Shown piece after piece: positions 1 through 14,847 of a stretch of DNA of 16,071 nucleotides. The stretch is from IMG/VR virus record IMGVR_UViG_2711768058_000013, positions 1-16,071 of that record; one strand, 5' to 3'. The position numbers and the translations under genes are program-made. This DNA comes from a virus (lineage: Duplodnaviria > Heunggongvirae > Uroviricota > Caudoviricetes). The first letter of the stretch is position 1. Every line of letters starts with the position of its first letter. The notes beneath the pieces were generated by a model, which did not search any database, was not told where the DNA came from, and worked only from the letters and a program-made list of their open reading frames with translations.

Positions 1-1050
1 TCATGTCAGGCTCTCACGAATCTCCCTGACAGTCTGAGCAAAACGTTCTGATTCCAGTTCAACACCAGTTGCACGACGCCCGAGCGCCATAGCCGCCTTT
101 ATGGTTGAGCCAGAACCCATGAAGAAATCCGCCACCATGTCACCAGGACGACTGCTCGCGCTGATTATCTGCTGCAGCATTTCTGCCGGTTTTTCGCACG
201 GATGTTTCCCGGGATAGTACTGCACCGGTTTATGCGTCCACACATCCGTGTACGGCACCTGCGCCGTCACGCCAAAATACCGCCGCAGATGCTTATATTC
301 ACTCTGCAGTTCCGCATACTGCCGGTTCAGTGAAGTATACGTCTCCAGCAGCTGGTGGTGGGGCTTTTCCAGTTCACCCCGCTGATGCTTCTCTTCTGCC
401 ACCCGGGCAAACAGCGCCTGTAATTTCAGATAATCGCTTTCGTTCGGCAGCTGCCACTGACTGGCACTGAACCAGTGCGACACCATGTTTTTCTTTCCTG
501 TGGCTTCGGCAATCTGTTTTGCCGTTATACCCAGTTCGGCACGAGCATCCCTGAAATACGATATCAGCGGTGCCATTATGTGCTGTTTGAGTTCCCTTTC
601 TTTTTCCGCATAGACGTCACTTTTGCCGCGATATGGCCCCTGGTAATGTTCAGCAAACAGAACGCGCTCTGTAGCGGGGAAATATGCCCGCAGGCTTTCT
701 TTATTACACCCGTTCCATCGTCCGGACGGCTTCGCCCAGATGATATGGTTAAGCACGTTGAAACGTTCACGCATCATGATCTCGATATCAGATGCGAGGC
801 GATGTCCACAGAACAGGTAAAGGCTTCCGGCAGGTTTCAGTACCCGCCAGAACTGGGCCAGACAGAGGTCCAGCCACTTCAGGTAATCTTCGTCCCCTTT
901 CCACTGATTGTCCCAACCGTTGGGCTTCACTTTGAAGTACGGCGGATCGGTAACTATCAGGTCAATGGAATCATCAGGCAGGGACTGAATAAAATGCAGG
1001 CAATCAGCGTTGATTAAATCAACACTGTTTATTTTTACAGTATTTTTCAT
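1..1050 (-). CDS. Orphan DNA N6-adenine/N4-cytosine methyltransferase (beta-class amino-methyltransferase)
   Basis: 349-aa ORF with stop at 1-3 and ATG at 1048-1050. Motif IV (IVTDPPYF) near the N-terminus and the AdoMet-binding motif I (DFFMGSGST) near the C-terminus, the beta-class order. No adjacent restriction endonuclease is recognisable. Position matches the yfdM-like methylase of CPS-53-type prophages (recollection). Confidence 0.85.
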   Translation of the reverse strand: MKNTVKINSVDLINADCLHFIQSLPDDSIDLIVTDPPYFKVKPNGWDNQWKGDEDYLKWLDLCLAQFWRVLKPAGSLYLFCGHRLASDIEIMMRERFNVLNHIIWAKPSGRWNGCNKESLRAYFPATERVLFAEHYQGPYRGKSDVYAEKERELKQHIMAPLISYFRDARAELGITAKQIAEATGKKNMVSHWFSASQWQLPNESDYLKLQALFARVAEEKHQRGELEKPHHQLLETYTSLNRQYAELQSEYKHLRRYFGVTAQVPYTDVWTHKPVQYYPGKHPCEKPAEMLQQIISASSRPGDMVADFFMGSGSTIKAAMALGRRATGVELESERFAQTVREIRESLT

Positions 1051-1200
1051 GGATCAGTAAGCGTAACTCTGGTAGGCTCACTCTGCTTTTGCGCTAAAGC
1101 AGTGGGCCGTGGTTCGCTTGTGACCAGTAAGCATGAGCGAATGGCTGGCAGGTGCTACCAACACCCACCAGCCGCCCATTTTCACAGCAGGAAACCGCCA

Positions 1201-1404
1201 TTACTGGCAGCGTCTGAATTTATTCCCGTACCCGCCGTTATCCTTCGCCAGACCCGCCAGAACTAACTGAGTCAGTATTAACTGGCACCGGGCTTCGCTT
1301 ACTCCGGTAGTTCTCGTCATCATGCATGGCGTTACCCACTTGTCAGCAGGTAAGAAATGAAGGACTGCGGCGGCGGTTTCTGTCATATCTTGCTGTTTTA
1401 GCAT
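1201..1404 (-). CDS. Hypothetical small prophage protein, possibly winged-helix-like
   Basis: 75-codon ORF in the track (1201..1428). The internal ATG at 1402-1404 is preceded by a GAAGGG Shine-Dalgarno-like sequence about 9 nt upstream; the ATG at 1428 has none. No recognisable family. Confidence 0.4.
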   Translation of the reverse strand: MLKQQDMTETAAAVLHFLPADKWVTPCMMTRTTGVSEARCQLILTQLVLAGLAKDNGGYGNKFRRCQ

Positions 1405-1520
1405 GTCTTTTTCCCTTCTGGTTAACATGACATACCAATAACTCTTGTCTAAAAAGCCAGCAAGATAAAAAGTCAGTATTCACGACCACCAGCGTGTTTA
1501 CTGTACTGCACCAAGTTTAC

Positions 1521-1548
1521 AGGTACAAAAAACCGCTCAGCGGCTGGT
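1521..1548 (-). terminator. Putative intrinsic terminator on the minus strand (hairpin plus T6)
   Basis: Read on the minus strand: AGCCGC-TGA-GCGGTT stem-loop (4 GC pairs plus G.U and A-T) followed by TTTTTT (complement of the A-run at 1527-1532). Lies between cassette 1 and the late-strand small gene. Confidence 0.35.
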
Positions 1549-1663
1549 TTAAGTTGTGTGGCGAAGTAACCACTCTTAACACGATACAATAGTTTTTGCG
1601 TACGCGTTAGTGGTTATGTAAACTTTCTCCATATAAAAACAGCAAAGAAGCGGATATTTTGAA

Positions 1664-2233
1664 ATGGCTACACTGGACGCATTCAGTAGAGTAATAACTC
1701 ATCATACTATTACGATCGATACACAATACCGTACACAGAAAATTGATGATAGCATCAGATCGAACTGTGTTTGCCCGGTACCAACAATGCGTGAACTTGC
1801 TTCTAAAATAGTACGTTGTAAAGCAATGATGCACAGTTATGAAAAAGGAGACTTAGTTTTAACTTTGCAAGATGTAATCTTCTTATCAAACAGAGCCGAT
1901 AAAAAACCCAGCCATCTTGGTCTTTTAATTAATGCTGTAGATAAAAATGGAAGCACTACTGTGTTAAAAAACATTAATACAGATGTTCGTACCGAAATAT
2001 CACCAAAACATGAGGAAGGTGAAGGTTACGAAGTTTCTTCTCATATGATTATTTCTCTAGACGGAAATATGCGAACCTATGACATGAGTTTTATGCCAAT
2101 ACCAGGAGTTTCCACAGCAAAAATAAATGGTTTCCTGAATAAAGTTCTCTTTAACGTAGCCAAAGATAATGAAGATATCTTTTCATGTAACACTTTAACA
2201 AATGAAGTATCAAGTTTAACAAAGAAAAAATAA
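1664..2233 (+). CDS. Hypothetical protein, AT-rich cargo (cassette 1, ORF A)
   Basis: 189-aa ORF, low GC compared with flanking phage genes, ATG at 1664, on the strand opposite to the flanking phage operon. No recognisable domain. Ends in a Lys-rich tail encoded by an A6 tract. Confidence 0.5.
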   Translation: MATLDAFSRVITHHTITIDTQYRTQKIDDSIRSNCVCPVPTMRELASKIVRCKAMMHSYEKGDLVLTLQDVIFLSNRADKKPSHLGLLINAVDKNGSTTVLKNINTDVRTEISPKHEEGEGYEVSSHMIISLDGNMRTYDMSFMPIPGVSTAKINGFLNKVLFNVAKDNEDIFSCNTLTNEVSSLTKKK

Positions 2234-2283
2234 AAGTATTATACAAGCCAGTCTTTGATATATCTGGAAAGTTAGATGAAGAT

Positions 2284-2691
2284 TTGTTCAATAAAATAAA
2301 TAAAGAAGGACTTTCTGATGTCGTTTTGGTAAAGAATGAATACAGAACTATTAATGCGCCAGATGTTAACGCGGCTATTATTCCTAAAGAAAGTACTTTA
2401 CGCTTAGTACCAAACCATGGCCCCAACAATGTCCTTGGATGGATAAAATCTGTCTCAAACTTCTTTAAAGAAGATAAAAATGGAGGTTATGACTTAATAA
2501 AAATAAAATTCAAAGAGCCAGAGACAGGATTCACAAGACAAGTTGACCTTCAAACTTCAAATGTAAGGCTCGATGGGCTGGAAAAAACATTTATCAAAAA
2601 GAGTGTAATAAATGGTTTTTCTTCGCGCTTAAAGGATTCTTATGATAGTATTAACATGGAGTTTGTGAATAAGATTATCGAGGTCATGTGA
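2284..2691 (+). CDS. Hypothetical protein (cassette 1, ORF B), possibly the frameshifted C-terminal part of ORF A
   Basis: 135-aa ORF with no ATG start (first start codon is TTG at 2284 with a weak RBS). Its frame is open back to 2206, overlapping the last 28 nt of ORF A. The stop at 2689-2691 is followed by GAGG and the ATG of ORF C. Confidence 0.45.
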   Translation: MFNKINKEGLSDVVLVKNEYRTINAPDVNAAIIPKESTLRLVPNHGPNNVLGWIKSVSNFFKEDKNGGYDLIKIKFKEPETGFTRQVDLQTSNVRLDGLEKTFIKKSVINGFSSRLKDSYDSINMEFVNKIIEVM

Positions 2692-2698
2692 GGCTAAT

Positions 2699-3274
2699 AT
2701 GATTAGTATATTTTCACATTTATTTAGACCGTTTGGTTACCTTTTTATTAAGGGAATTAGTGGTAAGTGCGCATACGATTTTTATGCACCTGCAGGGCTT
2801 GCTGTGATTTCTTTTTTTTACTTTTATTTATTTAAAATACCCACATCAGACCTACTAAAAGATGGCGGCTTTATTAAGTCTATATCTGGATTTGTATCAA
2901 ATCTGCCAGGTTTTTATATAGCAGCTCTTGCAGCAATAGCCACTTTCAACAGAGAACAAATTGACTACCCTCTGATAGGAACTAATGGCACGCCTTTTAT
3001 TAAAATTACACGAACAAAAGAAAATGGTAGAATTGTTGACACTCAAGAGAAACTTACCAGAAGATTATTTCTGTGCATGTTATTTTCATTTTTAACTGCC
3101 CTCAGCATATGCATAGTGATTTTCAACGCTTTTATCACACCACTAATAAACATACTGAATAATGATATAGCAAACTGGTGCTATATCATTATCTTTTTAT
3201 TCCTTACATGGCAAATGCTTGTTTCAACATTTTTTGGACTATACTATCTTGGTGATAGGATTCACATTAATTAA
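2699..3274 (+). CDS. Integral membrane protein, about four predicted TM helices (cassette 1, ORF C)
   Basis: 191-aa ORF with GAGG RBS 6-7 nt upstream of ATG 2699. Four long hydrophobic stretches (AGLAVISFFYFYLF; FYIAALAAIATF; LFLCMLFSFLTALSICIVIF; WCYIIIFLFLTWQMLVSTFFGLYYL). Its 3' end overlaps the convergent Q gene by 8 bp. Confidence 0.6.
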   Translation: MISIFSHLFRPFGYLFIKGISGKCAYDFYAPAGLAVISFFYFYLFKIPTSDLLKDGGFIKSISGFVSNLPGFYIAALAAIATFNREQIDYPLIGTNGTPFIKITRTKENGRIVDTQEKLTRRLFLCMLFSFLTALSICIVIFNAFITPLINILNNDIANWCYIIIFLFLTWQMLVSTFFGLYYLGDRIHIN

Positions 3275-3644
3275 CTACCATAATGGGGTTTATAGTTATT
3301 ATTACACCGCTGATAAACCCCATGGCAGTCTGCAATTCCTTCCTAATTGTGCCATCTGAACATCTTCTCTTCTTGGCAATAGTGCGTAATGAGATACCAA
3401 TAACAAAGTGAGCTATGATCAGCTCATATTCCTCTGGTTTATACTTTCGCAACCGAGCCACACAACCGTCTATCATGATGCCTTCATCATCATCACACTG
3501 GAGACGTGACTTTTTACCGTGTGGTAAAAGTCCCTTGAAACCAGCCGCTATCGGCTGCCAGTCCACACCACTATTTTCTGCTGCAGCCCATGCTCCCCAG
3601 CGGTCCAATACTTCATACATATCACGCATCAGCTTTCTCCACAA
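3267..3644 (-). CDS. Late-gene antitermination protein Q (QuuD-like short Q family)
   Basis: 125-aa ORF. The N-terminal WGAWAA motif, the Cys-containing middle and the C-terminal HTH-like segment resemble, as I recall it, the short Q antiterminators of E. coli prophages (DLP12 QuuD type). Last gene of the coupled minus-strand operon. Confidence 0.75.
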   Translation of the reverse strand: MWRKLMRDMYEVLDRWGAWAAAENSGVDWQPIAAGFKGLLPHGKKSRLQCDDDEGIMIDGCVARLRKYKPEEYELIIAHFVIGISLRTIAKKRRCSDGTIRKELQTAMGFISGVIITINPIMVVN

Positions 3645-3646
3645 AA

Positions 3647-4642
3647 TCAGGCCAGCACGCCAATTGCCAGCGCACGATCGATAAAACGAAATATCAGCTC
3701 CAGCTGGGAGCCATACTTCTCTTCAAATGCCACGGTATCCGCATGCAGCTCGTCGTGATGCTTTCTGCACAAAGGCAACACAAAAAGGTCATGCGCTTTT
3801 GTTCCCATTCCACCCTGACCGTGACCTATCAGGTGGTGGGGATCATCAGCGGGCTTTCCACAACATGCACACGGCTGTGTCTTAACCCAGCGCGTGTACT
3901 TTTCATTAACCCAGCGGCGACGTTTTGGGCGTAACATAAAAGACTCCGGCGACTCCGGATCCACTTTCAGCGCCAGCACCTTTTTCGCTTTATTCTGGAT
4001 GATGCTGGTGGCCGGAACCGAAGGAACAAGGTCACTCTCCCGGGTGACAGACGGCACAACAGGCTTCGGTAATCTCAGTGCCTTACGGGCTGCACTTTCA
4101 GGTAAGGCATCCGCCAGATCATTACGAACCAGCCACCAGCACAGTTCCGGCATTGTCACAACGTGACTGTCATCAAAACCGAGATCCCGACGCACGACAG
4201 ACAACACCCAGCGGGCACAGTTATCCGTTGCCATTGATTCCAGCCGTTCCGTGAACTGATCGCGCAGCTGGTTATCGCAGTGCCAGCACAGACGGATTGC
4301 GCCCGGCGCGTGACGCATTGTGGTCATGTTCTCGCTGTGCCAGTCGGAATGAGGCCACTGGCAGCCTTTTTCACGAAGTAACCAGCTTTCAAGACATTCC
4401 ACGCCACCAGCACGACGGATCACTGCCTCATTGCGGAACACGGCCCGAACGGCAGGATCATCCGCCAGCGGTTGTGATGCCGCCGGAACAGCACCACTGG
4501 CGAAAGATGAATAACGTTCCGGCTCAGGCTCCAGCAGGACACGCCCCTGCATAAACAGGGGCATCAGCTCTGAACCTGGTCTGAACAATACGATCCCCAT
4601 ACGCGGGGCAATTTCAGGGGTCAGTAGTGCTCTCACGGTCAC
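3647..4642 (-). CDS. DUF968-like prophage protein (YdfU family) with C-terminal Cys/His cluster
   Basis: 331-aa ORF with C-terminal CACCGKP...HHLIGHG...H...LCRKHHDELH metal-binding-like cluster. Sits between the KilA-N gene and Q as in Nin-region equivalents. Family name is from memory. Confidence 0.55.
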   Translation of the reverse strand: MTVRALLTPEIAPRMGIVLFRPGSELMPLFMQGRVLLEPEPERYSSFASGAVPAASQPLADDPAVRAVFRNEAVIRRAGGVECLESWLLREKGCQWPHSDWHSENMTTMRHAPGAIRLCWHCDNQLRDQFTERLESMATDNCARWVLSVVRRDLGFDDSHVVTMPELCWWLVRNDLADALPESAARKALRLPKPVVPSVTRESDLVPSVPATSIIQNKAKKVLALKVDPESPESFMLRPKRRRWVNEKYTRWVKTQPCACCGKPADDPHHLIGHGQGGMGTKAHDLFVLPLCRKHHDELHADTVAFEEKYGSQLELIFRFIDRALAIGVLA

Positions 4643-4643
4643 C

Positions 4644-5486
4644 TCAATGAACGGTATCGAGCAGCTTTAACAGCTCAGGGAATCGGGATTCGAAGAAATG
4701 CGGCTGCGTCTCGCGCGGATTTGCGGGACTGGTGATGTTCTTGCCAAACATGCAACCTTTCGCTGTCAGCGACCAGAATTTTTTGATGTTGTTAATCGCG
4801 GTACGGCTGTATCGTTCGCGTTGTTCAACGATCCCCAGCTTCGCCATCTGGTGATATGCCTGATTAGCCGTCAGGCGGATACCATACTGTTTCAGCAGTG
4901 CACTCAGTGACAGTGTAGGACGACTTGAGCCATCGTGTGCATCAGCAGGAGCATCAATGGCATAGCGCGGTGCCAGATTCGGTAAGCCAACAGCCTCCTG
5001 AAGTTTCTGACAGGCACCAAGCACTGATGAGTTAGACAGATTTAACTCCCGGCGCATAAAGTCCAGCAGAATCACGCCAGCCTGCATCTTGTCAGCAGCC
5101 TGCCAGGATAATTTTTCCGGTGCGCTGGTTACCATGTCGAAAGTGCGGATCACCTTCAGATGGAATGACGGGCTGATCCACATTGCATAGGCATACACCA
5201 GGTCCTTACAGACATATGTTCCGCCATTCCGCCCTTCTATTTTACTGACAGGTTTACTACCCAAATTTTGGGTAGTTTCATTGAATGAACCGACACCCAG
5301 ATTTTGGGTATCGATCAATTCCTGAACCAGCTCAGTAATCTGTTGGCTGGAAAGAAACTTTCCCGGCTCCTTGGTTCTGGCATTTGCACCAGATGCTACT
5401 GCTGCGCGATGCAGATCGTTCAGGCTGTAACGCCCATAAGCATCACGACGAACTTCAATACCATCAATGACCATCAGATTATTCAT
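4644..5486 (-). CDS. KilA-N domain-containing protein
   Basis: 280-aa ORF. N-terminal region (SLNDLHRAA..., GGTYVCKDLVYAYAMWISPSFHLKVIR) resembles the KilA-N DNA-binding domain. Tightly packed with neighbouring genes. Confidence 0.6.
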   Translation of the reverse strand: MNNLMVIDGIEVRRDAYGRYSLNDLHRAAVASGANARTKEPGKFLSSQQITELVQELIDTQNLGVGSFNETTQNLGSKPVSKIEGRNGGTYVCKDLVYAYAMWISPSFHLKVIRTFDMVTSAPEKLSWQAADKMQAGVILLDFMRRELNLSNSSVLGACQKLQEAVGLPNLAPRYAIDAPADAHDGSSRPTLSLSALLKQYGIRLTANQAYHQMAKLGIVEQRERYSRTAINNIKKFWSLTAKGCMFGKNITSPANPRETQPHFFESRFPELLKLLDTVH

Positions 5487-5505
5487 ACTTCGTTTCTCCT
5501 CTTAA

Positions 5506-5895
5506 TCAGGCGGCTGCACCCGCCGTTTTCTCGTACTTACTGATAGTGATCTCGACCTTCCCTTCCGGGATAACCGGTCCCCACTCCACCAGCATTCTTT
5601 TCACCTGACTGTCGTCTTCCCACACCCCCGCGTGGGTCAGGGCGTCAAACAGCGCCTTGTTATAGTTGTCCAGATCGCGGATCCGGTTATCCGGAGGAAA
5701 CAACACGATCTCCACTGAAGCAGGTGCCGACGTTGGTTTTGGCAGACGACGTAACTGCTCAACTATTGCTGCACACGCCGCGCTCTGGAATTTTCGCCCC
5801 GCCGCGCTTATCAGGCTCTTACCAGCAAACGCCCCTTTGTTGGGGTGTCGCCAGTACGTGTTCACGCTGGGCGGAAAAGGCAGGATCAGCTTCAT
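5506..5895 (-). CDS. rusA: Holliday junction resolvase RusA
   Basis: 129-aa ORF with the RusA-type motif RIRDLDNYNKALFDALTHAGVWEDDSQV (catalytic Asp cluster). Start ATG overlaps the stop of the upstream gene (ATGA). Confidence 0.8.
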   Translation of the reverse strand: MKLILPFPPSVNTYWRHPNKGAFAGKSLISAAGRKFQSAACAAIVEQLRRLPKPTSAPASVEIVLFPPDNRIRDLDNYNKALFDALTHAGVWEDDSQVKRMLVEWGPVIPEGKVEITISKYEKTAGAAA

Positions 5896-6218
5896 ACTTT
5901 CAGGCCCCTCTCATGTAACCAGTGGACTGCACGCAGTCTGGCGTTTTCCTCACCGGCAAGCAGTGCGCGGATAATCCCGGCTGCCTCACTGTCGTCATCC
6001 TTCACTGTGGTATGAAGCGTGATACCCCGGGCCACGCCACGCTTTATCGTGATGACGCCTTTTTTCTCCAGTGCGCGAAGATGCTCCACCGCTGCATTCA
6101 CCGAACGGTATCCCAGCATGGTTGCCACCTCCTGATTGGTTGGCGGGAAACCACGTTCTTTCTGATAAGAAATCAGCATATCCAGCACCTGCTGCTGGCA
6201 TTGAGTTAACGTCGTCAT
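5892..6218 (-). CDS. LexA-type DNA-binding domain protein, no S24 peptidase domain
   Basis: 108 aa from ATG 6216-6218, which overlaps the TAA of the upstream gene (TAATG). LTQCQQQVLDMLISYQKERGFPPTNQEVATMLGYRSVNAAVEHLRALEKKGVITI matches the LexA N-terminal winged-helix pattern. The track ORF extends to 6251 without an ATG. Confidence 0.6.
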   Translation of the reverse strand: MTTLTQCQQQVLDMLISYQKERGFPPTNQEVATMLGYRSVNAAVEHLRALEKKGVITIKRGVARGITLHTTVKDDDSEAAGIIRALLAGEENARLRAVHWLHERGLKV

Positions 6219-6712
6219 TAAGCCCCCACGTAATTCCCTGACAGATACCACTCTTCACCCGATGCAGCACGCTTGCTGCTTTTCCGTAAGCACTGCTCAC
6301 GACGAGCCAGAAAATTGTTTCGTTCTGGCTGGGAGTGGCTTTCTCGGAATGCCGCCATCCACACCGTTGCAGCACGACGGTATAAGCCCCTGGACTCCAG
6401 TTCTTCAGCCTGGCGGGTCAGGCACAAAATCACCCGTGGATCGTTAGTGCCGACATAGAAATTGCGCACAGATCTGGTTTCACGAACTGGTTGTGGCTCC
6501 GGCCCCTGCGCTCTCTCAGTCAGGCGCGGGAAATGTCTGCGTGTATCTCCTTCACAACGGTGAGCCACACTCCCACTCTGACGTAACTTGCTTGCTGACT
6601 GCAGAACGCGCTGCCGTGAGTAATCTGCAAAAGCATCCGCAATGTCTCCGGAAGTACAGCCCGGATGGGCTTCAATGAATTTCTGAACTTCATTCAAAAG
6701 ACTCATGCTCAC
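6218..6712 (-). CDS. yfdN: PerC-family transcriptional regulator (yfdN-like)
   Basis: 164-aa ORF. AEELESRGLYRRAATVWMAAF...RREQCLRK resembles the PerC/Pch signature (AExLExxGLWRRAAxRW). 164 aa equals the length I recall for K-12 YfdN. Start overlaps the stop of the O-like gene. Confidence 0.5.
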   Translation of the reverse strand: MSMSLLNEVQKFIEAHPGCTSGDIADAFADYSRQRVLQSASKLRQSGSVAHRCEGDTRRHFPRLTERAQGPEPQPVRETRSVRNFYVGTNDPRVILCLTRQAEELESRGLYRRAATVWMAAFRESHSQPERNNFLARREQCLRKSSKRAASGEEWYLSGNYVGA

Positions 6713-7650
6713 CCCCTGAATCCTGCCGGGATCTGGCTGTAGTCCACATTGTCGTAACTGGCTTTGAAGTACGGGTCTTCGCGTTTTTCTGTGTACGTGC
6801 TGACGGACGGCGATAAGCGCAGGGAAAGCTCATCCCATTTTTCCCGCAGCTTCGACGGGCTGAGCACGTTACGGCACCAGAACGGATCGCGGCTGACGCG
6901 GCTGTACATCTCGCAGATTTGTTTGTGAGTACGACCATCCTGCACACACATCAGGCGAATTTCGTTTGCCCAGGCTGTCCAGTTCGGTTCTTTGGGACGA
7001 ACCACCTCGCCGTCACATTCGGCGGCCTGCTCGTACAGGGCGATGATTCTTTTCCAGAGCCACTGTGCGCAGGTCAAATCATCCTGCGTTCCCCACTGGC
7101 GCTTTTTAGGGCTGAATACAACCGCATCAGGATGGCGAGTTAAAAACTCCTGTTCAGCCGTCTGCGTGTCCGGTTGCGAAGCGTCCGGACGAGAAGTTTT
7201 TTTATCTGACGGATCATGTTTTGATTTTACTGACGGATCCCCGCCAGATTCTGACGGGTGAAAACCCGCTTTTTTGCCAGATTTCGACGCATCAAATTTT
7301 GACGGGTCAGATTTTGATGTGTCAGATTTTGACGGGTCATAATCTGACAGTTGAGAAAATGCCGCTGCCTGAAGCTTCGCAACGTTAAGCTGATAAACAT
7401 TCGACGCATTGCGGTTACCCTGGCGACGCGCCTTACGCGTTAACCAGCCTTCTGCTTCCAGCCGTGCGATAGCCGTTCTGACGGTACTCATCCCCGCGCC
7501 AATCTGACGGGCAATAGTTTCAATTGATGGCCAGCACACACCTTCGTCATTACTGAAATCAGCCAGGCGGGCCATAATTGCCACGCTGGATAATTTCATG
7601 CCTGATGCAGCGCAACCATCCCATACATAGCCGGTTAATTTAGTGCTCAT
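6709..7650 (-). CDS. Phage replication initiator, O-like (yfdO-like), with internal origin iterons
   Basis: 313-aa ORF with N-terminal winged-helix (SSVAIMARLADFSNDEGVCWPSIETIARQIGAGMSTVRTAIARLEAEGWL), a central low-complexity K/S/D/P-rich linker encoded by DNA iterons, and a C-terminal domain. Analogous to lambda O, where ori lies inside the gene. Confidence 0.7.
   Translation of the reverse strand: MSTKLTGYVWDGCAASGMKLSSVAIMARLADFSNDEGVCWPSIETIARQIGAGMSTVRTAIARLEAEGWLTRKARRQGNRNASNVYQLNVAKLQAAAFSQLSDYDPSKSDTSKSDPSKFDASKSGKKAGFHPSESGGDPSVKSKHDPSDKKTSRPDASQPDTQTAEQEFLTRHPDAVVFSPKKRQWGTQDDLTCAQWLWKRIIALYEQAAECDGEVVRPKEPNWTAWANEIRLMCVQDGRTHKQICEMYSRVSRDPFWCRNVLSPSKLREKWDELSLRLSPSVSTYTEKREDPYFKASYDNVDYSQIPAGFRG
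7204..7352. repeat. Iteron array, about 8 direct repeats of a 15-bp unit (consensus near GATTTTGACGGGTCA); putative prophage origin
   Basis: Copies include atctgacggatca, ttttactgacggatcc, agattctgacgggtg, agatttcgacgcatca, aattttgacgggtcag, attttgatgtgtcag, attttgacgggtcat, aatctgacagttg. Located inside the O-like coding sequence. Confidence 0.65.
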
Positions 7651-7998
7651 GACCGACCTCTACTTCCCTGAATTTACGACGAAACTGTTCGAGCGGGCTG
7701 AAGCACTCATGCTCATAGCCTTCGCGGAGGTAGATAACTCGTTGTGTTTCCGGCTCCCAACGAATGACTCTGACGGGCACTCCGTAGTGATCTTTGAACC
7801 AGCGGTTAACTTGTCGCAAAGGACTGTCTCCTTCTGCCGGTTGAAATCACCCACAGCCCACTCAGCAAAGCTGTGGGTTACAATTTCCCTGTCACCTGGT
7901 ACATTAACTGCATAGCAATACTCCACCTTCGCTTTTCCACCCGGTACAGGAAGCGCAATCAGTTGCGAGCGACGGTAGTGTGTTGTTAAACTGTTCAT
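7640..7998 (-). pseudogene. Small gene split between two reading frames (frameshifted gene or two nested small genes)
   Basis: Frame A: ATG 7996-7998 overlaps the stop of the upstream CII-like gene and runs to 7660 (112 aa, C-terminal half low-complexity). Frame B: open from 7846, AAGGAGA Shine-Dalgarno (complement of 7827-7833) plus TTG 7817-7819, stop TAA 7640-7642 overlapping codons 3-4 of the O-like gene. Both frames are translationally coupled to a neighbour. Confidence 0.4.
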
Positions 7999-8603
7999 GC
8001 GTTAGTTTCTCCACAGTCACGACACGCCACGGCGCCCGGAGCTGCACACTCGCGGGCGTCATTACTTTCTGAAATGCAAAAGATTTTGTAGACCAGTGCT
8101 GCATGCTCCTGCAGCTTCGAAATTGAGAGATACAGCTCGTCGTTAATTGCTGTCTTCTCATGCGGTTCCACCACACCGTCTTCGATTGCCGAACGAATCT
8201 GTCTGGAATAACTGCCAATCTGTTCAATGACTTCCAGCAGGCGCTGGTTAATATCGGCGTTGTCCACATCCTCGACGTCAGGAAGAGACACAAAGACGCC
8301 ATTTGCAGACTGCGCCACAGCGTCAGCAATGAAGTGAGTTCCACCAGCACGTTGCAAAATCATTGCCCATCCCAGCGGGAAAATCTGATCGCCATCGGCA
8401 CGAAGGCGGTTAAATAATGCGTTTTCTGTTACATCCAGCCAGTCAGCTGCTTCAGCGTAACCACCCGGCAACGCTGCGATAGTTTTTCTGACAGCTTTCA
8501 CGTACCACTCAGGCTGTTTTTCTACTTTCCAGTGATGCTTACCCACGGTTAGCCTCATCGTTCTGTGGTTTCTGTTAATCGATTTATCCATTAGATTTTT
8601 CAT
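7995..8603 (-). CDS. CII-like lysogeny regulatory protein (CP76/YdaT-type), putative
   Basis: About 200 aa. Sits immediately downstream of the cro-like gene, overlapping it, and upstream of the replication gene, the canonical cII position. ATG at 8603 or 8591; the track ORF extends to 8660. Family assignment is from weak recollection only. Confidence 0.45.
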
Positions 8604-8784
8604 AAAGCTCAGGTTTAAATGGCAACCGTCCGCAAGTTCTATATGCAGCTTCTGCTGCACGTCCTTTTGGAATTAACTGGCCCGGACGGTTTCGCCACTG
8701 ATAAACGGCTTCAGTTGTTATGCCGAAAAAAGCAGCAACTTTCTCAATACTGCCGAAGTAGCTTTCGATATCGTCAGTTGTCAT
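8584..8784 (-). CDS. cro: Cro-type HTH repressor (Cro/YdaS-like)
   Basis: 66-aa ORF, divergent from the cI-like repressor across a 97-bp operator region. HTH-like segment FFGITTEAVYQWRNR. Confidence 0.7.
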   Translation of the reverse strand: MTTDDIESYFGSIEKVAAFFGITTEAVYQWRNRPGQLIPKGRAAEAAYRTCGRLPFKPELYEKSNG

Positions 8785-8881
8785 ACGCCCTCCAAACTAA
8801 GTTTTATTAGATGCTAATTACAAATCTATCTTTGGTCAATAAAAACTAAGATTACTTAGCAATTCAAGAAATGGTGCTCCT
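8785..8881. promoter_or_regulatory. OR-like divergent promoter/operator region between cro and cI
   Basis: 97-bp AT-rich intergenic region. Operator-like repeats AACTAAG at 8795-8801 and 8844-8850; the second lies in the palindrome CTAAG-ATTA-CTTAG (8846-8859). The same heptamer recurs downstream of cI. Confidence 0.6.
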
Positions 8882-9508
8882 ATGGAAACGGTTGGTCAGC
8901 GTATAAAAGCTCTGAGAAGAGTTACCGGAACGTCCCAGAAAGAATTGGGTAAATTTTGTGGAGTAAGCGACGTTGCTGTGGGGTACTGGGAGAAAGACAT
9001 CAATACCCCTGGTGGGGAGGCACTTTCGAAATTAGCGAAGTTCTTCAATACGTCAATAGATTACATTCTTTATGGTGCTGAGTTTGAAGGCAAACTCGTC
9101 ACAAACATGCGCAGAGTTCCTGTAATATCGTGGGTTCAGGCTGGGCAGTTTACTGAGTGCAGGGCAGCAGAAGTGTTTAGTGAAGTGGACAAGTGGGTAG
9201 ATACATCATTAAAGATTGGTGATAACTCATTTGCATTAGAGGTTAAAGGTGACTCCATGACTAACCCTAATGGCCTCCCAACAATACCAGAAGGCGCAAC
9301 AGTGATTGTAGATCCAGATGCAGAACCTCGTCATGGAAAAATAGTCATCGCTCGACTTGATGGAACAAACGAAGCTACAGTAAAAAAATTAGTCATCGAT
9401 GGCCCTCAAAAGTTTTTAGTGCCATTAAATCCTCGGTATCCCAACATCCCTATCAATGGTAATTGCCTTATCATTGGTGTAGTCAAAGGAGTTCAATACG
9501 AACTCTAA
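8882..9508 (+). CDS. cI: CI-type prophage repressor (XRE HTH plus S24 LexA-like autopeptidase domain)
   Basis: 208-aa ORF. N-terminal HTH (QRIKALRRVTGTSQKELGKFCGVSDVAVGYWE), C-terminal S24 motifs with catalytic Ser in GDSM and Lys in ATVKKL. Divergent from cro. Confidence 0.85.
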   Translation: METVGQRIKALRRVTGTSQKELGKFCGVSDVAVGYWEKDINTPGGEALSKLAKFFNTSIDYILYGAEFEGKLVTNMRRVPVISWVQAGQFTECRAAEVFSEVDKWVDTSLKIGDNSFALEVKGDSMTNPNGLPTIPEGATVIVDPDAEPRHGKIVIARLDGTNEATVKKLVIDGPQKFLVPLNPRYPNIPINGNCLIIGVVKGVQYEL

Positions 9509-9517
9509 GACCTCTCT

Positions 9518-9590
9518 TCTCTAACTAAGGCACCGAACTAAGAAAAGTTTGGTGTTTTCTCTTGCCATAATAACTAAGTTAAGTTAGATT
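9518..9590. promoter_or_regulatory. OL-like operator cluster downstream of cI
   Basis: Three further copies of AACTAAG (9523-9529, 9536-9542, 9572-9578) in the AT-rich spacer between the cI stop and the next plus-strand ORF, in the position equivalent to lambda OL/PL. Confidence 0.45.
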
Positions 9591-9693
9591 TTATATCAAA
9601 AATAACGAACAGGCAGGACGCCCACGAAGTAGCCGCCTGGGGCATATGAAGTCCAGGATGATTCGTTGAGTCATGTTGTGCCACTAGGCACTC

Positions 9694-9990
9694 ATGTTAA
9701 AGCAGGTGTATGAAATGAAAGTCCAGATTTTAAACAATAGTGGTGAAGTCGTTTGGTCATACGACATAGCCGCCCATGTAGATCAGAGCGGCGATAGCTG
9801 GGCCAATGGGAAACATCAGATTATGGCTGGAGTTGTGTTCTCTTTACGCCGTGCTTTGGAACAGGCTGAAGTATTTCCATCAGACCCTGAATGGAAATGG
9901 CCTTTTTCTATTTGTCCAAATTCGGAGAGCACATTTCAGAAAATTGGTCAGAAAGTCGCACTCGAAGAGCATCAGCCAACTGTTTCCTGA
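9694..9990 (+). CDS. Hypothetical protein, first gene of the putative leftward early operon
   Basis: 98-aa ORF. The in-frame ATG at 9715 has a better RBS (AGGTG 6 nt upstream) and may be the true start. No recognisable family. Confidence 0.5.
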   Translation: MLKQVYEMKVQILNNSGEVVWSYDIAAHVDQSGDSWANGKHQIMAGVVFSLRRALEQAEVFPSDPEWKWPFSICPNSESTFQKIGQKVALEEHQPTVS

Positions 9991-10003
9991 TTTTTTCAGG
10001 TAA

Positions 10004-10153
10004 CTAGTCGGCATCGCAGAAACAACAACGCTCGATCATGTTGAAAGCCGATTCGTAGAACTGTTTCTGCTGAGTGTCGCTGAGACAGGAAAAGAGCGAC
10101 GTTACGATGATTTTATTAATTGCATTATCAAGTTCTTTTTCATCAAAAGTCAT
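10004..10153 (-). CDS. Possible small protein (49 aa) not in the ORF track
   Basis: Manual translation of the minus strand: MTFDEKELDNAINKIIVTSLFSCLSDTQQKQFYESAFNMIERCCFCDAD. AAGGA Shine-Dalgarno 7 nt upstream of ATG (complement of 10161-10165). Below the usual length cutoff. Confidence 0.3.
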   Translation of the reverse strand: MTFDEKELDNAINKIIVTSLFSCLSDTQQKQFYESAFNMIERCCFCDAD

Positions 10154-10408
10154 TTGATTTTCCTTTTATGTATACGGGCTTAAAAGGATACCACCGAGCC
10201 TGAAGTGGTGAAAAGACAGGCACATAACAGCTAAGTATTTTCAACCAGAGAGAATCCTTAGCGTTGTGGTGAATGCGGCTCAGCGCACGCGGGTTAAGGT
10301 TGAGGCTGACAGTCGACCTTCTGTGGATACCCACCCGTCTGGTGTGCAACCTTCGCCAGGCACCGGGAGGCACCCGGCACCACAACTTTATGCTGTGTGT
10401 AGTCCTGG

Positions 10409-10455
10409 CGGTACCAGTTTGTACCCTTGCTTCCGGCTGGTACCGTCCTTTTTAC
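10409..10455 (+). terminator. Putative intrinsic terminator or structured RNA element
   Basis: Inverted repeat CGGTACCAG (10409-10417) / CTGGTACCG (10437-10445) followed by TTTTT (10449-10453). The 19-nt loop is long for a terminator. Lies in a GC-rich segment with no convincing coding frame. Confidence 0.35.
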
Positions 10456-10590
10456 AAAACAGAGAAGAGCATCACCGGACGACGGGCTCATAACCCAATC
10501 CATCCGGGCGGCTGCCACCGCAGGTGTTCTTCTCTGTTTTGTGGAGAAACTAATCGGCCTTGCAGGGTCGATATGATGAGGAGCAGCAAA

Positions 10591-10953
10591 ATGGCTAGTG
10601 AACGCAGTACTGATGTGCAGGCATTTATCGGGGAGCTGGACGGCGGCGTATTTGAAACCAAAATCGGCGCAGTTCTCAGTGAAGTCGCTTCCGGTGTGAT
10701 GAACACGAAAACCAAAGGTAAGGTCTCACTCAACCTGGAAATCGAACCATTTGATGAGAACCGTGTGAAAATCAAACACAAACTCTCATATGTTCGCCCG
10801 ACTAACCGCGGGAAAATTTCCGAAGAAGACACCACCGAAACGCCGATGTATGTCAATCGCGGTGGTCGCCTGACTATTCTGCAGGAAGACCAGGGACAAT
10901 TACTGACTCTTGCCGGTGAACCTGACGGAAAACTACGCGCAGCAGGTCATTAA
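10591..10953 (+). CDS. yfdP: YfdP-like prophage protein, function unknown
   Basis: ATG 10591 with GAGGAG Shine-Dalgarno 7 nt upstream gives 120 aa, the length I recall for K-12 CPS-53 YfdP, and it sits directly upstream of a yfdQ-like gene. The track ORF start at 10273 lies in non-coding-looking GC-rich sequence. Confidence 0.6.
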   Translation: MASERSTDVQAFIGELDGGVFETKIGAVLSEVASGVMNTKTKGKVSLNLEIEPFDENRVKIKHKLSYVRPTNRGKISEEDTTETPMYVNRGGRLTILQEDQGQLLTLAGEPDGKLRAAGH

Positions 10954-11018
10954 TATCGTTCTTAATTAACTGATTATTTATCTCATCACTGAATATCTTT
11001 ATATAGTGAGGACTTATT

Positions 11019-11843
11019 ATGTCTCAGAACTTAGACGCAACCGCAATTAATCAAATCCATGCCCTTATTTCTGCTCAGGGTGTTAATGAAATTATCAGTA
11101 AGATTGGTGCCGATGCTGTGGCATTGCCTGAGAATTTCCGCATTCATGATCTGGAAAAATTTAATTTAAATCGTTTCCGTTTCCGTGGTGCGCTTTCCAC
11201 TGCCAGCATCGATGACTTTACCCGTTATTCTAAAGATCTTGCAGATGAAGGCACCCGCTGCTTTATCGATGCCGATAATATGCGTGCCGTCAGTGTGCTT
11301 AACCTGGGTACCATTGATGAGCCAGGTCACGCAGATAACACTGCCACTCTCAAACTGAAAAAGACAGCACCGTTCTCTGCCCTGTTGTCTGTTAACGGCG
11401 AGCGTAACTCCCAGAAGTCACTGGCAGAATGGATTGAAGACTGGGCCGACTACCTTGTGGGCTTTGATGCTAATGGTGACGCTATTCAGGCAACAAAAGC
11501 GGCTGCGGCAGTCCGTAAAATCACGATTGAAGCAAACCAGACCGCTGATTTTGAAGATAATGACTTCAGCGGCAAACGCTCCCTGATGGAATCTGTCGAA
11601 GCGAAGACCAAAGACATTATGCCAGTGGCATTTGAATTTAAATGCGTTCCGTTTGAAGGTCTGAAAGAACGTCCGTTTAAATTACGCCTCAGCATTATCA
11701 CTGGCGATCGTCCTGTACTGGTTCTGCGCATTATTCAGCTGGAAGCGGTGCAGGAAGATATGGCTAACGAATTTCGTGATCTGCTTGTTGAGAAATTCAA
11801 AGACAGCAAAGTAGAAACCTTTATTGGTACTTTCACCGCCTGA
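11019..11843 (+). CDS. yfdQ: YfdQ-like protein (DUF2303 family), function unknown
   Basis: 274-aa ORF with GAGGA RBS. Length and position (between yfdP-like and yfdR-like) match my recollection of K-12 CPS-53 yfdQ. Confidence 0.7.
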
Positions 11844-11855
11844 TTTCATTACTGC

Positions 11856-11880
11856 AAATGCCCCTGCGGGGGCATTTATG
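11856..11880 (+). terminator. Putative intrinsic terminator downstream of the yfdQ-like gene
   Basis: AAATGCCCC-TGCG-GGGGCATTT: 9-bp stem with GC-rich core and short U-tract (TTTAT), 13 nt after the stop codon. Confidence 0.4.
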
Positions 11881-11970
11881 GAAACGTAATTAACTCAATA
11901 ATCACCGGATGGTGATGGCTTCCTTTTACCCAAACTCAGCGCGGTGCAGCGCATATACGTGGAGAACAAA

Positions 11971-12507
11971 ATGTCATTTATTAAAACTTTTTCCGGGAAG
12001 CATTTTTATTATGACAAGATAAATAAAGACGACATCGTGATTAACGATATCGCGGTTTCCCTTTCAAATATCTGTCGCTTTGCAGGGCATCTTTCACACT
12101 TCTACAGCGTCGCCCAACATGCGGTGCTTTGCAGCCAGCTGGTGCCGCAGGAATTTGCTTTTGAAGCGTTAATGCATGATGCAACAGAAGCATATTGCCA
12201 GGACATCCCTGCACCACTGAAACGACTTCTTCCTGACTATAAACGGATGGAAGAAAAAATAGACGCCGTAATCCGTGAGAAATACGGGTTACCTCCTGTT
12301 ATGAGCACGCCAGTGAAATATGCCGATCTCATTATGCTGGCAACCGAACGTCGCGATCTCGGGCTTGATGATGGCTCTTTCTGGCCTGTACTGGAAGGCA
12401 TCCCGCCAACAGAGATGTTCAAAGTTATTCCACTGTCGCCAGGCCATGCCTACGGGATGTTTATGGAACGCTTTAACGGGTTATCGGAGTTACGCAAATA
12501 CGCATGA
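11971..12507 (+). CDS. yfdR: HD-domain phosphohydrolase (YfdR-like 5'-deoxynucleotidase family)
   Basis: ATG 11971 with GGAGA RBS gives 178 aa. HD motif (SVAQHAV...ALMHDATEAY). The length I recall for K-12 YfdR is also 178 aa. The track ORF starts at GTG 11944. Confidence 0.7.
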   Translation: MSFIKTFSGKHFYYDKINKDDIVINDIAVSLSNICRFAGHLSHFYSVAQHAVLCSQLVPQEFAFEALMHDATEAYCQDIPAPLKRLLPDYKRMEEKIDAVIREKYGLPPVMSTPVKYADLIMLATERRDLGLDDGSFWPVLEGIPPTEMFKVIPLSPGHAYGMFMERFNGLSELRKYA

Positions 12508-12541
12508 GTCTTTCAACTGCACAACCACTGGAGGGATAGCA

Positions 12542-12736
12542 ATGAACAACTTAATGACAACTAAACAGGTCGCCGACTTCTGTGGCGTTTCAGTATCAAC
12601 AGTACTTCGTTGGAACAGCGTAAACAGGAGGACTGGCCAGAAATACAGACCAGATTTTCCAGATCCTGATATAAAATCCTGCCCAAATAAATGGGCATCA
12701 CACAAGATTTATAGGTTTGCGGGTGTTATTGAGTAA
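12542..12736 (+). CDS. Excisionase / AlpA-family HTH protein (Xis-like)
   Basis: 64 aa from ATG 12542 with GGAGGG RBS 6 nt upstream. TTKQVADFCGVSVSTVLRW is the typical AlpA/Xis (MerR-like) HTH signature. Confidence 0.7.
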   Translation: MNNLMTTKQVADFCGVSVSTVLRWNSVNRRTGQKYRPDFPDPDIKSCPNKWASHKIYRFAGVIE

Positions 12737-12750
12737 GGTAGGTAGCACAG

Positions 12751-12900
12751 ATGTTAACTGACGCTTCTATAACACAAAGCAAACCTAATCTGACTGCACG
12801 CCCTACGCCAGAAACAGATCAAAGTTTAAAATATGCACCGTCCGGAGTGACGATTTTTGTAATATACAGTAGCCTCTATGGGTCATGTGACAGTGTATAG
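12751..12900 (+). pseudogene. Possible remnant of an integrase 5' end (49-aa ORF)
   Basis: Manual translation MLTDASITQSKPNLTARPTPE...: the first 12 residues fit the conserved N-terminus of P4-type integrases (L-T-D-x-x-I-x-x-x-K-P), after which similarity is lost. Lies 15 bp downstream of the excisionase. Confidence 0.3.
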
Positions 12901-12911
12901 GAAAAACAGAA

Positions 12912-13745
12912 GTGATCGATGACCCGTTACCAACGAATTGGAAAGATCTCCAGAACGGAGTCCAACGCATCTTCCGCAATGTTGGCTTATATGCAGAAGT
13001 CGAAGCCAATGTAGAGACTCCACGTGGTTCGGTGAATGTGGATGTTCTCGCAATAGATCCCAAGAGCGTAGATAAAATCAGATACATAGTAGAATGTAAA
13101 AACTGGAGTAACTCTGTGCCTCAGAGCGTAGTCCATTCGTTCACTACGGTGATGCATGAAACTGGGGCTAACATTGGTTTTATTATTTCAAAACATGGGC
13201 TTCAGCAAGGAGCAAAGCAGTATACACAAAACACAAATATCACTGGTATGACATATCTAGAATTTCAAAAGAGATATTTTGAGGCTTGGTGGAAAAGATA
13301 TTTTTGCCCACTTATAGGTGATGCTGCTGACAAGGTTCTTTTATACACTGAAGAATTCAACCATCAGCGAGACCGAGCTTATAGGAATCTTACCCCACAT
13401 AATAAAAAGATGTTTGATGATTTAAGGAGACAGGAAGGTGGCTCAATAATGATTTTATCGATGTTCAACTACATGTCGATATCGAGAGGACTAAAAACAG
13501 GAACATTTTTAAACGTTCCAAAAAGCCTAGATGACTTTAAAGCTATAGTGCTCTCTCAAATAACTCCTCATATCCAATGGAATTGCGACACATTCCGTGA
13601 ACTGTTGAATACGATTTTAAAATACTTAGCAGATATTAAATCAGAATTTGAAATGATATTCGGGGGAGATATTTTTGAACAAACAGATAATATCAGCGGA
13701 GTAACTCTTGATGGTCCTCCTTTGGGAGGGGATATTTATCTATAA
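12912..13745 (+). CDS. Mrr-like PD-(D/E)xK restriction-endonuclease-domain protein with unknown C-terminal domain (cassette 2, gene 1)
   Basis: 277-aa ORF with GTG start. N-terminal NVDVLAID...YIVECKNW...VVHSFTTVMHETGANIGFIISKHGLQQGAKQY matches the Mrr catalytic-domain pattern (D...D...(E/Q)xK...F...G.FI...A). The C-terminal 170 aa are AT-rich and unrecognised. Confidence 0.65.
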   Translation: MIDDPLPTNWKDLQNGVQRIFRNVGLYAEVEANVETPRGSVNVDVLAIDPKSVDKIRYIVECKNWSNSVPQSVVHSFTTVMHETGANIGFIISKHGLQQGAKQYTQNTNITGMTYLEFQKRYFEAWWKRYFCPLIGDAADKVLLYTEEFNHQRDRAYRNLTPHNKKMFDDLRRQEGGSIMILSMFNYMSISRGLKTGTFLNVPKSLDDFKAIVLSQITPHIQWNCDTFRELLNTILKYLADIKSEFEMIFGGDIFEQTDNISGVTLDGPPLGGDIYL

Positions 13746-13835
13746 TTATTAAACTACGCTTAACATTGTCGAATGTTCGATTCATCACTCGAAGCAGAAA
13801 TAAATCAACCTTTTATTTCTAATTAGGAATTTTTA

Positions 13836-14777
13836 ATGGCTACATTTTTCATCAATAACAAAAAAATTTCGATTAGCTCTCTGAAATATAATAGTAAAGA
13901 AATTCAATTAGAAGCAATGCGTAGTTGGTTTCTTGAAAATTATGAAGATCCTGCAAACAGTTGCCCTTATGAGTCACGAGAAGGGGGGTATATTTATATT
14001 TATGGAGGACCATATGATGCAAGTGAAGTGCTTCAAGAAAAATTTGGCGGCTATGTAAAAGATGATTATATTCAAGAGATTGTCGATGATTTACAAGAAA
14101 TTTGTTATGAATGGTCCGGTAACTCCAGTAACGTAGAGGGATGGTATGATGAAGATTTATATAATGTTGTTACAACATCAAAAGAACCTTATACTAACTT
14201 CTACGAAAACATTGCTAAAATACGTTCACTTTCCACACTTAATATTAGTGAAAAAGATAAATCTCATTTTCTTGGCATTTTATACACAAATATTATCACT
14301 GCCCTAGAAACGTTATATGTTGAGCTATTTATCAATTCTATAGAAAAAGATAATTCTTTTTTCATAAATTATATACAAACAGGAACCGGAAACTTTAAAG
14401 CAAGTAAGTCATTGATTTTAAATGCATTCAAGCATGAGTCAATAGTAGAATTAAGAGAACGGTTAGTAAAAGAAATTAAAGAGCACTTAATAAATTCTAG
14501 TTGGCATAGCACTGAACAAGTTATTAAGCGTTATAAATCAACATTTGGTATTAAGGTACAAAGTGACTGGCCTATATCAGAGATTGAACATGCAACTATA
14601 ATTCGAAATCATTTAATCCATCGGGGGGGCAAGGACAAAAATGGAGATCCAGTAACAATTACAGAAGATAATCTAAATGAGTTACTTGAACTATCAGTAT
14701 TACTATGTGAGAAATTGCATACCAGTTTGAACAAAGTAGTAGATGGAAAAAATGGTGGCAGCGAAAGCGAATTTTGA
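13836..14777 (+). CDS. Hypothetical protein with C-terminal HEPN-like R-N-x-x-x-H motif (cassette 2, gene 2)
   Basis: 313-aa ORF, very AT-rich, AGGAA RBS 8 nt upstream of ATG. C-terminal ATIIRNHLIHRGG contains R-N-H-L-I-H, which fits the HEPN RNase signature. No other recognisable domain. Confidence 0.6.
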   Translation: MATFFINNKKISISSLKYNSKEIQLEAMRSWFLENYEDPANSCPYESREGGYIYIYGGPYDASEVLQEKFGGYVKDDYIQEIVDDLQEICYEWSGNSSNVEGWYDEDLYNVVTTSKEPYTNFYENIAKIRSLSTLNISEKDKSHFLGILYTNIITALETLYVELFINSIEKDNSFFINYIQTGTGNFKASKSLILNAFKHESIVELRERLVKEIKEHLINSSWHSTEQVIKRYKSTFGIKVQSDWPISEIEHATIIRNHLIHRGGKDKNGDPVTITEDNLNELLELSVLLCEKLHTSLNKVVDGKNGGSESEF

Positions 14778-14847
14778 TATGAAAGCCTTTGGAATGACAG
14801 CCAAGACATTTAACCAGATTCATCTGCTCATTAATCAAAGCAAATTG

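Follow-up and report, generated by a model that had tools for sequence, protein, structure and literature searches.

Here, we analyzed a stretch of 16,071 nucleotides of viral DNA (IMG/VR record IMGVR_UViG_2711768058_000013, positions 1 to 16,071; the whole stretch is called the window below), which comes from a lambdoid E. coli or Shigella prophage of SfIV/SfII-like type, with attention to a set of repeats inside its replication initiator gene (6709-7650, minus strand). Our analyses suggested that positions 7192-7347, within the linker-coding part of this gene, are probably the cis-acting replication origin of the SfIV/SfII-type prophage. The arrangement, with the origin inside the initiator gene as in lambda, is known; the element adds a new example of it that had not been annotated before.

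The initiator gene was taken from the list of open reading frames (ORFs) and codes for a protein of 313 amino acids, which matched PHROG 391 ('replication initiation O-like') over its full length (E 1.5e-135). At the DNA level it is 99.3% identical to gene 41 (gp41) of SfIV, an isolated phage. The N-terminal domain (residues 1-98; 7357-7650, minus strand) is predicted to be a winged-helix domain. Pfam HTH_36 matched residues 23-70 (E 4.3e-11, 42.9 bits at a cutoff of 25), an AlphaFold2 (AF2) model built with 46 homologues placed helices and strands over residues 3-98 at a predicted local distance difference test (pLDDT) score of about 70-88, and the best Foldseek matches of the domain were PDB entries of MarR/ArsR-type winged-helix proteins, several of which were solved on DNA, at a weak E of about 2e-3; the Pfam scan gave no Phage_rep_O match for the initiator. 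The C-terminal domain (residues 164-280; 6811-7161, minus strand; pLDDT 76-95) is homologous to that of lambda O. BLASTP aligned the initiator with lambda O at 29% identity over 210 amino acids (E 1e-25), with the alignment starting only at residue 70, and tblastn matched the initiator over residues 131-277 to the O proteins of lambda, 21 and 434, with an identity of about 35%. Between the two folded domains, residues 102-161 (7168-7347, minus strand) form a predicted disordered linker with pLDDT below 50; this low-confidence stretch coincides exactly with the repeat-encoded part and contains the entire candidate origin. The initial annotation of the sequence had placed the repeats inside a replication initiator gene and had them encode a linker, and the domain analysis agreed with it on both points.

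Dyad repeats and the adjoining AT-rich tract

Tandem Repeats Finder reported a 15-bp array at 7278-7339 (4.1 copies, 80% matches, score 82), and a second repeat search gave six copies together with more degenerate ones at 7201-7239. With at most three mismatches allowed, the 15-mer TGACGGGTCAGATTT occurs four times in the 16-kb window, each time inside 7207-7344; the chance expectation is 0.45, and four copies were reached in 0 of 200 shuffles, so that the array found by the repeat finder is beyond chance. On the gene strand, the repeat unit is a dyad with the core TCARAWTYTGA, in which positions ±1 to ±5 are complementary. The full map comprises a tandem run of five 15-bp units, a sixth full unit that stands apart and two half-units, which gives eight copies of a 9-bp core. 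The description as about eight 15-bp direct repeats in the initial annotation is thus right in the number of cores, but only five of the copies follow a 15-bp period and the units are dyads rather than plain direct repeats.

In the direction of transcription, the tandem array begins with iteron 1 (7337-7347), which reads TCAGATTATGA on the gene strand with one mismatch to the core consensus, and continues with iterons 2 (7322-7332) and 3 (7307-7317), both TCAAAATCTGA. Iteron 4 (7292-7302) is TCAAAATTTGA, a perfect 11-bp palindrome that codes for S-K-F-D, and the degenerate iteron 5 (7277-7287) is TCGAAATCTGG, with two mismatches. A spacer with A6 and T4 tracts (7255-7276) lies between the tandem array and iteron 6, and the Phe codon in the spacer region is TTT in 67 of 67 homologues. 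Iteron 6 (7240-7258, core 7244-7254) is a 19-bp near-perfect palindrome, CCCGTCAGAATCTGGCGGG, in which eight of nine pairs match; its core sits 33 bp on from that of iteron 5, and the iteron opens the most conserved DNA block of the family. Two half-sites, both GATCCGTCAG and each with a Dam site, are found at 7230-7239 and 7206-7215 (minus strand), and the Asp codon at the former is GAT in all 73 homologues compared. All repeat copies share one reading frame of the initiator ORF and encode DPSKS-like peptides.

The candidate unwinding region (7192-7231) is both the most AT-rich (72%) and the least stable 40-mer of the gene. It lies directly promoter-distal to the iterons, after the last full dyad, and contains the two invariant GATC sites. 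An AT-rich region next to the repeats had been named in the initial annotation as something to look for, and this tract answers to it, although it is weaker than that of lambda (80%).

Constraint on the repeat DNA and alternative explanations

The repeats were compared among 80 homologous loci, with one genome per species, and five phage loci. For codon analysis, units were defined by the peptide only (S[KE]S[DEG]), which gave 214 units in 79 homologous genes; selection of units by DNA similarity was dropped as circular. The first Ser of the repeat is encoded by TCA in 93% of units, compared with 17% of the Ser codons elsewhere in the same genes, and the second Ser by TCT in 84% of units, compared with 10% elsewhere. 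Lys or Glu is encoded by AAA or GAA in all 214 units, whereas these codons account for about 60% elsewhere. Within the N-domain of these genes, the most frequent codon at conserved residues has a mean share of only 0.53-0.54, which indicates that synonymous sites there are saturated. In the single-copy block YCAGAATCTGG-GGGGATCCGTCAGTAAA-TCA...GATCCATCAG, by comparison, the commonest codon averages 0.93 (GAT 69/69, GTA 68/68, TCA 58/58 and TTT 67/67), and the difference in codon uniformity from the N-domain is significant (Mann-Whitney p = 1.3e-7). Variation is seen in the 'x' codon that separates the dyads and in the number of copies, which ranges from 1 to 9 and is mostly 4-6.

The two arms of the dyad also change together. 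At positions ±2, G.C is exchanged for A.T (odds ratio 8.3, p 3e-7), by which S-E-S becomes S-K-F, as in TCAAAATTTGA. At positions ±5, T.A is exchanged for C.G (odds ratio 14.5, p 3e-15), by which S..D becomes P..G; C at -5 with G at +5 gives the P-E-S-G units CCAGAATCTGG, which in distant homologues extend to the perfect 17-mer CCTCCAGAATCTGGAGG. The palindrome in the DNA is thus kept when amino acids are replaced. Both the direction of these changes and the control within the same genes argue clearly that selection acts on the repeat DNA itself, across the Enterobacterales. Conservation at the protein level only was the outcome that the initial annotation had set against its own proposal; we found the opposite, since synonymous sites hardly vary within the repeats but are saturated in the N-domain.

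Exchange of gene segments between phages gives a second line of evidence. The gene of mEp460_4F5 (LR595868, 'Primosomal protein I') has the same C-domain, with 96.8% nucleotide identity that ends at window position 7205, and the same yfdN-type gene downstream; its N-domain is unrelated. At the same place in its linker there are five 23-nt repeats, spaced 24, 23, 23 and 23 bp and out of frame, and three AT-rich 12-mers after them. The order of repeats followed by an AT-rich stretch in the linker is thus shared with the window, but the repeat sequence is unrelated. In phiNP and YeP2, a window-type N-domain with its dyads is joined to a Phg_2220_C C-domain, and in L17 of phiP27 the same N-domain and dyads are joined to a third C-terminal region, with DnaC- and DnaB-type genes coming after it. 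SfV orf39 carries yet another repeat set in its linker. The repeats are therefore co-inherited with the DNA-binding N-domain and not with the C-domain, which is the pattern expected for an initiator and its cognate sites.

Four other explanations were weighed. According to one of them, the dyads would be control sites for the initiator or another regulator, acting in autoregulation, copy number or incompatibility, and the true origin would lie elsewhere. Dyads for a winged-helix dimer do resemble operators, the repeats of iteron plasmids serve in control as well, and the AT-rich tract is weak. The sites, however, are about 300 bp inside the gene and far from the promoter region at about 8800, the 16-kb window holds no second cluster of the motif, and the repeats are followed by the most AT-rich segment of the gene, as in lambda and mEp460_4F5; we regard this explanation as improbable. 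A lower probability still is given to a protein-level SKSDx tandem repeat in a flexible linker, produced by slippage and gene conversion, in which the DNA would have no cis role. This would account for the codon phase, which is the same throughout, for a peptide motif that is recognisable in every homologue, and for the predicted disorder of the region, and slippage could expand 15-bp units to the observed range of 1 to 9 copies. It does not fit with specific synonymous codons that are fixed across genera while those of the N-domain are saturated, nor with the single-copy block GGGGATCCGTCAGTAAA, which is equally frozen and beyond the concerted evolution of repeats. Moreover, the non-conservative changes (S to F, S to P and D to G) follow the DNA palindrome, and the sister gene of mEp460_4F5 has out-of-frame repeats at the same place.

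The conservation might also mark a recombination joint at which N- and C-terminal modules are exchanged, either through recent shared ancestry or as a selected 'boundary sequence'. The mosaic breakpoints at 7205 (mEp460_4F5) and 7172 (phiNP) are just downstream of the conserved block, and at least three C-terminal regions are joined to the window-type N-domain. These breakpoints nevertheless fall outside the repeats, and palindromic covariation would serve no purpose in a joint. The core bases are fixed while the 'x' codon and the copy number vary freely, and such position-specific conservation points to selection on the motif rather than recent common descent, so that we consider a recombination joint very unlikely. 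As for an overlapping gene or a structured RNA that constrains the synonymous sites, ORFs at 7221-7388 (plus strand) and 7227-7409 (minus strand) cover the region, and 38 of 79 homologues keep one antisense frame open; yet stops interrupt four alternative frames in nearly every homologue, and half of the homologues have the fifth disrupted. An overlapping ORF was rejected as the cause of the synonymous constraint, since the alternative frames are interrupted in most homologues. The Rfam scan of the whole window gave no match. A terminator-like hairpin at 7255-7268 and promoter-like hexamers in the repeats were set aside as consensus matches produced by the repeats themselves, and the hairpin is not kept in the homologues inspected. 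The chance that such an overlap or a structured RNA explains the data is minimal.

Several points weigh against an origin at 7192-7347. The P, DnaC and DnaB families are absent from all scanned ORFs of the window. The AT-rich tract is modest (72% AT, z = 1.5 relative to the whole window), and no DnaA box lies near the repeats, as TTWTNCACA occurs in the window only at 2664, 14280 and 15730, several kb off. With dyads of 11-13 bp set 15 bp apart, the packing is closer than in iteron origins that have been characterised, and the single codon phase of all copies leaves room for an additional constraint from the protein side, through a role of the SKSD peptide repeats. In the codon and covariation counts, related sequences and duplicated units enter as if independent, a weakness that is mitigated in part by the N-domain control within the same genes. 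In addition, no published description of this origin was found in the literature.

Proposed initiation without a phage-encoded helicase loader

With an origin at 7192-7347, initiation can be outlined as follows. After derepression, transcription from the rightward early promoter would pass through cro, the cII-like gene and the DUF4222-type gene before it reaches the initiator. Initiator dimers would then bind the six dyads through the winged-helix N-domain, five of them packed at 15-bp spacing and one stronger 19-bp palindrome 33 bp further on, and would probably bind the two GATC-containing half-sites too. The resulting nucleoprotein complex, together with supercoiling and transcription through the site, could melt the 40-bp AT-rich stretch, after which the lambda-O-like C-domain and/or the IPxGFRG tail would bring in host DnaB. 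Host DnaC is presumably used, because the phage encodes no loader. Initiator binding, origin firing and theta mode are inferred by analogy; unwinding and helicase recruitment are inferred as well. That the origin is functional or recently functional, as was initially proposed, is plausible, given an intact initiator gene that shares 99% identity with its counterpart in SfIV, an isolated phage.

The position of lambda P is held by a yfdN-like gene of the PerC family (6218-6712, minus strand), which overlaps the initiator stop. Its product matched Pfam PerC (E 4.2e-9) over residues 100-151 only, and PHROG 1324. A hidden P analogue was considered for this gene and rejected, since the protein has no similarity to lambda P and only its C-terminal part is PerC-like. 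NCBIfam gave no informative match. The initial annotation had noted a PerC-like regulator gene in this position and no P/DnaC-type loader gene after the initiator; the former was found at 6218-6712 and none of the latter among the scanned ORFs of the window. We further surveyed the first two ORFs after the initiator at 72 homologous loci (143 ORFs, including yfdN of the window), of which 44 were adenine methylases (Dam, D12 and MT-A70), 10 PerC, seven IstB/DnaC-like and two lambda P. Judged from these sequences, the loader-less arrangement is the norm in the initiator family. Without a loader typical of the family, it would fall to the initiator, or to a partner not yet recognised, to recruit the helicase and loader of the host.

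Dam-type adenine methylase is the commonest neighbour of the initiator, and many of these genes begin at the initiator stop codon; the window is without an adenine methylase directly after the initiator. SfIV likewise is without the methylase gene that the replication modules of SfII and SfV carry (SfIV genome paper, PMC3851460).

The initiator ends in the C-terminal tail IPAGFRG (6712-6732, minus strand). IPxGFR(G/S/T) is found at the extreme C-terminus in the majority of the 75 homologues listed, with lambda-O-like and Phg_2220_C-like C-domains alike, and the tail looks like a short docking peptide. The final 76 nt of the initiator gene move together with yfdN in mosaics (SfV, mEp460, cdtI and Stx2 phages). 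Directly upstream of the initiator there is a gene of DUF4222 type (RefSeq name; 7660-7998, minus strand, 112 amino acids), with a gap of 9 nt between its end and the initiator start. The two genes are syntenic in about half of the homologous loci, including distant ones in Rahnella and Pantoea, and Pfam DUF4222 matched 22 of 76 ORFs upstream of initiator homologues. The DUF4222-type protein may be a replication accessory. A wider scheme can be put forward only tentatively and is rather doubtful: the family would fire the in-gene origin without a phage loader, the IPxGFRG tail would directly recruit host DnaB/DnaC, possibly with help from the DUF4222 protein, and adenine methylation at the two invariant GATC sites of the unwinding region would gate the process. 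Such gating would account for the place of a Dam-type methylase gene as the most frequent neighbour of the initiator gene in relatives.

Prophage context, distribution and relation to known origins

The rightward early operon reads through the candidate origin. Its first gene is cro-like (8584-8784, minus strand; Pfam P22_Cro), with a promoter-like site at 8839-8811 that is a consensus match only, and a divergent cI-like repressor gene (8882-9508; Pfam Peptidase_S24 and HTH_3). A cII-like gene (7995-8660, minus strand) precedes the DUF4222-type gene and the initiator. After yfdN follow, all on the minus strand, genes for a protein with a LexA DNA-binding domain (5892-6251), RusA (5506-5895), a KilA-N protein (4644-5486), a DUF968/HNH protein (3647-4642) and the Q antiterminator (3267-3644). 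Past Q there are three very AT-rich plus-strand ORFs of 189, 135 and 191 amino acids (region 1664-3274), which have no Pfam match, and beyond them an N6/N4 DNA methylase gene (1-1050, minus strand; PF01555, E 1.3e-42) that runs to the window edge. Together these genes occupy the position expected for lysis genes, and they may be a moron or a defence island. At the other end, two AT-rich cargo genes (12912-13745 and 13836-14777, plus strand) adjoin the integrase gene (14848-16071, minus strand). One of them carries a Mrr_cat restriction-endonuclease domain (E 1.5e-12) and the other a HEPN/RES N-terminal domain (E 1.5e-6); both may serve in anti-phage defence.

The initiator family is large, with matches to 2,364 protein clusters. 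A DNA match to the initiator gene was present in 2,725 of 5,426 complete E. coli genomes, and it was nearly full-length in 1,577. In K-12, yfdO of the CPS-53 remnant, which matches window positions 6709-7417, is the initiator gene with its N-terminal part deleted, whereas the copy of the window is intact. This pseudogene, which is annotated as 'missing N-terminus' and abuts yfdP, has kept all the repeats and lost most of the DNA-binding domain, and is an orphaned candidate origin. Members of the family are usually named just 'helix-turn-helix domain-containing protein', and other names include 'GntR family transcriptional regulator', 'ArsR family regulator', 'biotin operon repressor', 'primosomal protein I' and 'replication protein O'. 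The name 'Replication protein 15' on one homologue hinted at phi80, but phi80 was not among the listed phage matches to the N-domain and linker.

Matches in PLSDB were mostly very large records, which probably carry integrated prophages. One E. coli 'plasmid' (NZ_CP148542.1, 15,977 bp, circular) holds a homologue of the initiator N-domain and linker that is 48% identical. It is a lambdoid early-to-lysis segment with cI/cro, the initiator homologue, an 'ATP-binding protein', Q, holin and lysozyme, and has no typed replicon; it represents either an autonomous element like lambda-dv or an artefact of assembly.

In the literature, the SfIV genome paper (PMC3851460) delimits the replication module and names no origin, and the Eru classification of Shiga toxin (Stx) phages (PMC8044961) covers other initiators and does not mention iterons; further literature searches yielded no account of the initiator family. 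A probable origin in the linker provides a concrete cis site for the serotype-converting Shigella phages of SfII/SfIV type and for CPS-53-like prophages, and it accounts for the joint travel of N-domain and linker in mosaics. In practice, 'synonymous' recoding of the initiator gene may abolish replication. The probable origin also raises the question of how an O-like initiator operates without a P-type loader, and a possible role of the invariant GATC sites is likewise worth testing.

Theta plasmids with iteron origins (pSC101, R6K, RK2 and P1) have clustered initiator-binding repeats beside an AT-rich region, a winged-helix initiator, and replication that uses host DnaB and DnaC; in P1, as in oriC, the unwinding region also carries GATC sites. 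Plasmid iterons are usually direct repeats of 17-22 bp with a spacing of about 22 bp, located outside the rep gene and accompanied by DnaA boxes, and the repeats of the window differ from them in having no DnaA box nearby. Among phages, oriL of SPP1 lies in gene 38, where direct repeats together with an AT-rich unwinding element are found in the gene of the origin-binding protein gp38 (PMC6316719). The layout is thus like that of the window, with repeats and an AT-rich element inside the gene of the origin-binding protein, but SPP1 has a Gram-positive host, its own loader gp39 and helicase gp40, and a second origin copy, oriR.

Lambda offers further points of comparison. For lambda and Stx phages it is established that the origin lies in the initiator gene, and O of lambda functions as a dimer (PMC7466680). 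The ori-lambda type (lambda, 933W, 21 and 434) has initiator-binding repeats in the middle of the initiator gene, and the repeats of the window, which the initiator would bind, are placed likewise: those of lambda comprise four iterons at O codons 117-145, and those of the window span codons 102-136, while the half-sites reach codon 149, so that all fall between the parts coding for the winged-helix domain (1-98) and the C-domain (164-280). The differences concern several features. The N-domain of the window initiator belongs to HTH_36 and that of lambda O to Phage_rep_O. The window has 11-13-bp dyads at an in-frame spacing of 15 bp, whereas lambda has 19-bp repeats at 20-24 bp (spaced 20, 24 and 23 bp), and it has six full sites and two GATC half-sites. 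The AT tract is weaker, with 72% compared with 80% in the most AT-rich 40-mer of lambda O, which follows directly after the iterons, and no P gene comes after the initiator as it does in the O/P module of lambda. Shared with lambda are repeats that are each an imperfect inverted repeat, an AT-rich tract on their promoter-distal side, a locus in the rightward early operon after cro and cII, and a homologous C-terminal domain. The wording 'exactly as ori lambda' in the initial annotation is thus too strong with regard to N-domain family, spacing, frame and AT strength, but it holds for the position inside the gene, the dyads, the side of the AT-rich tract and the C-domain.

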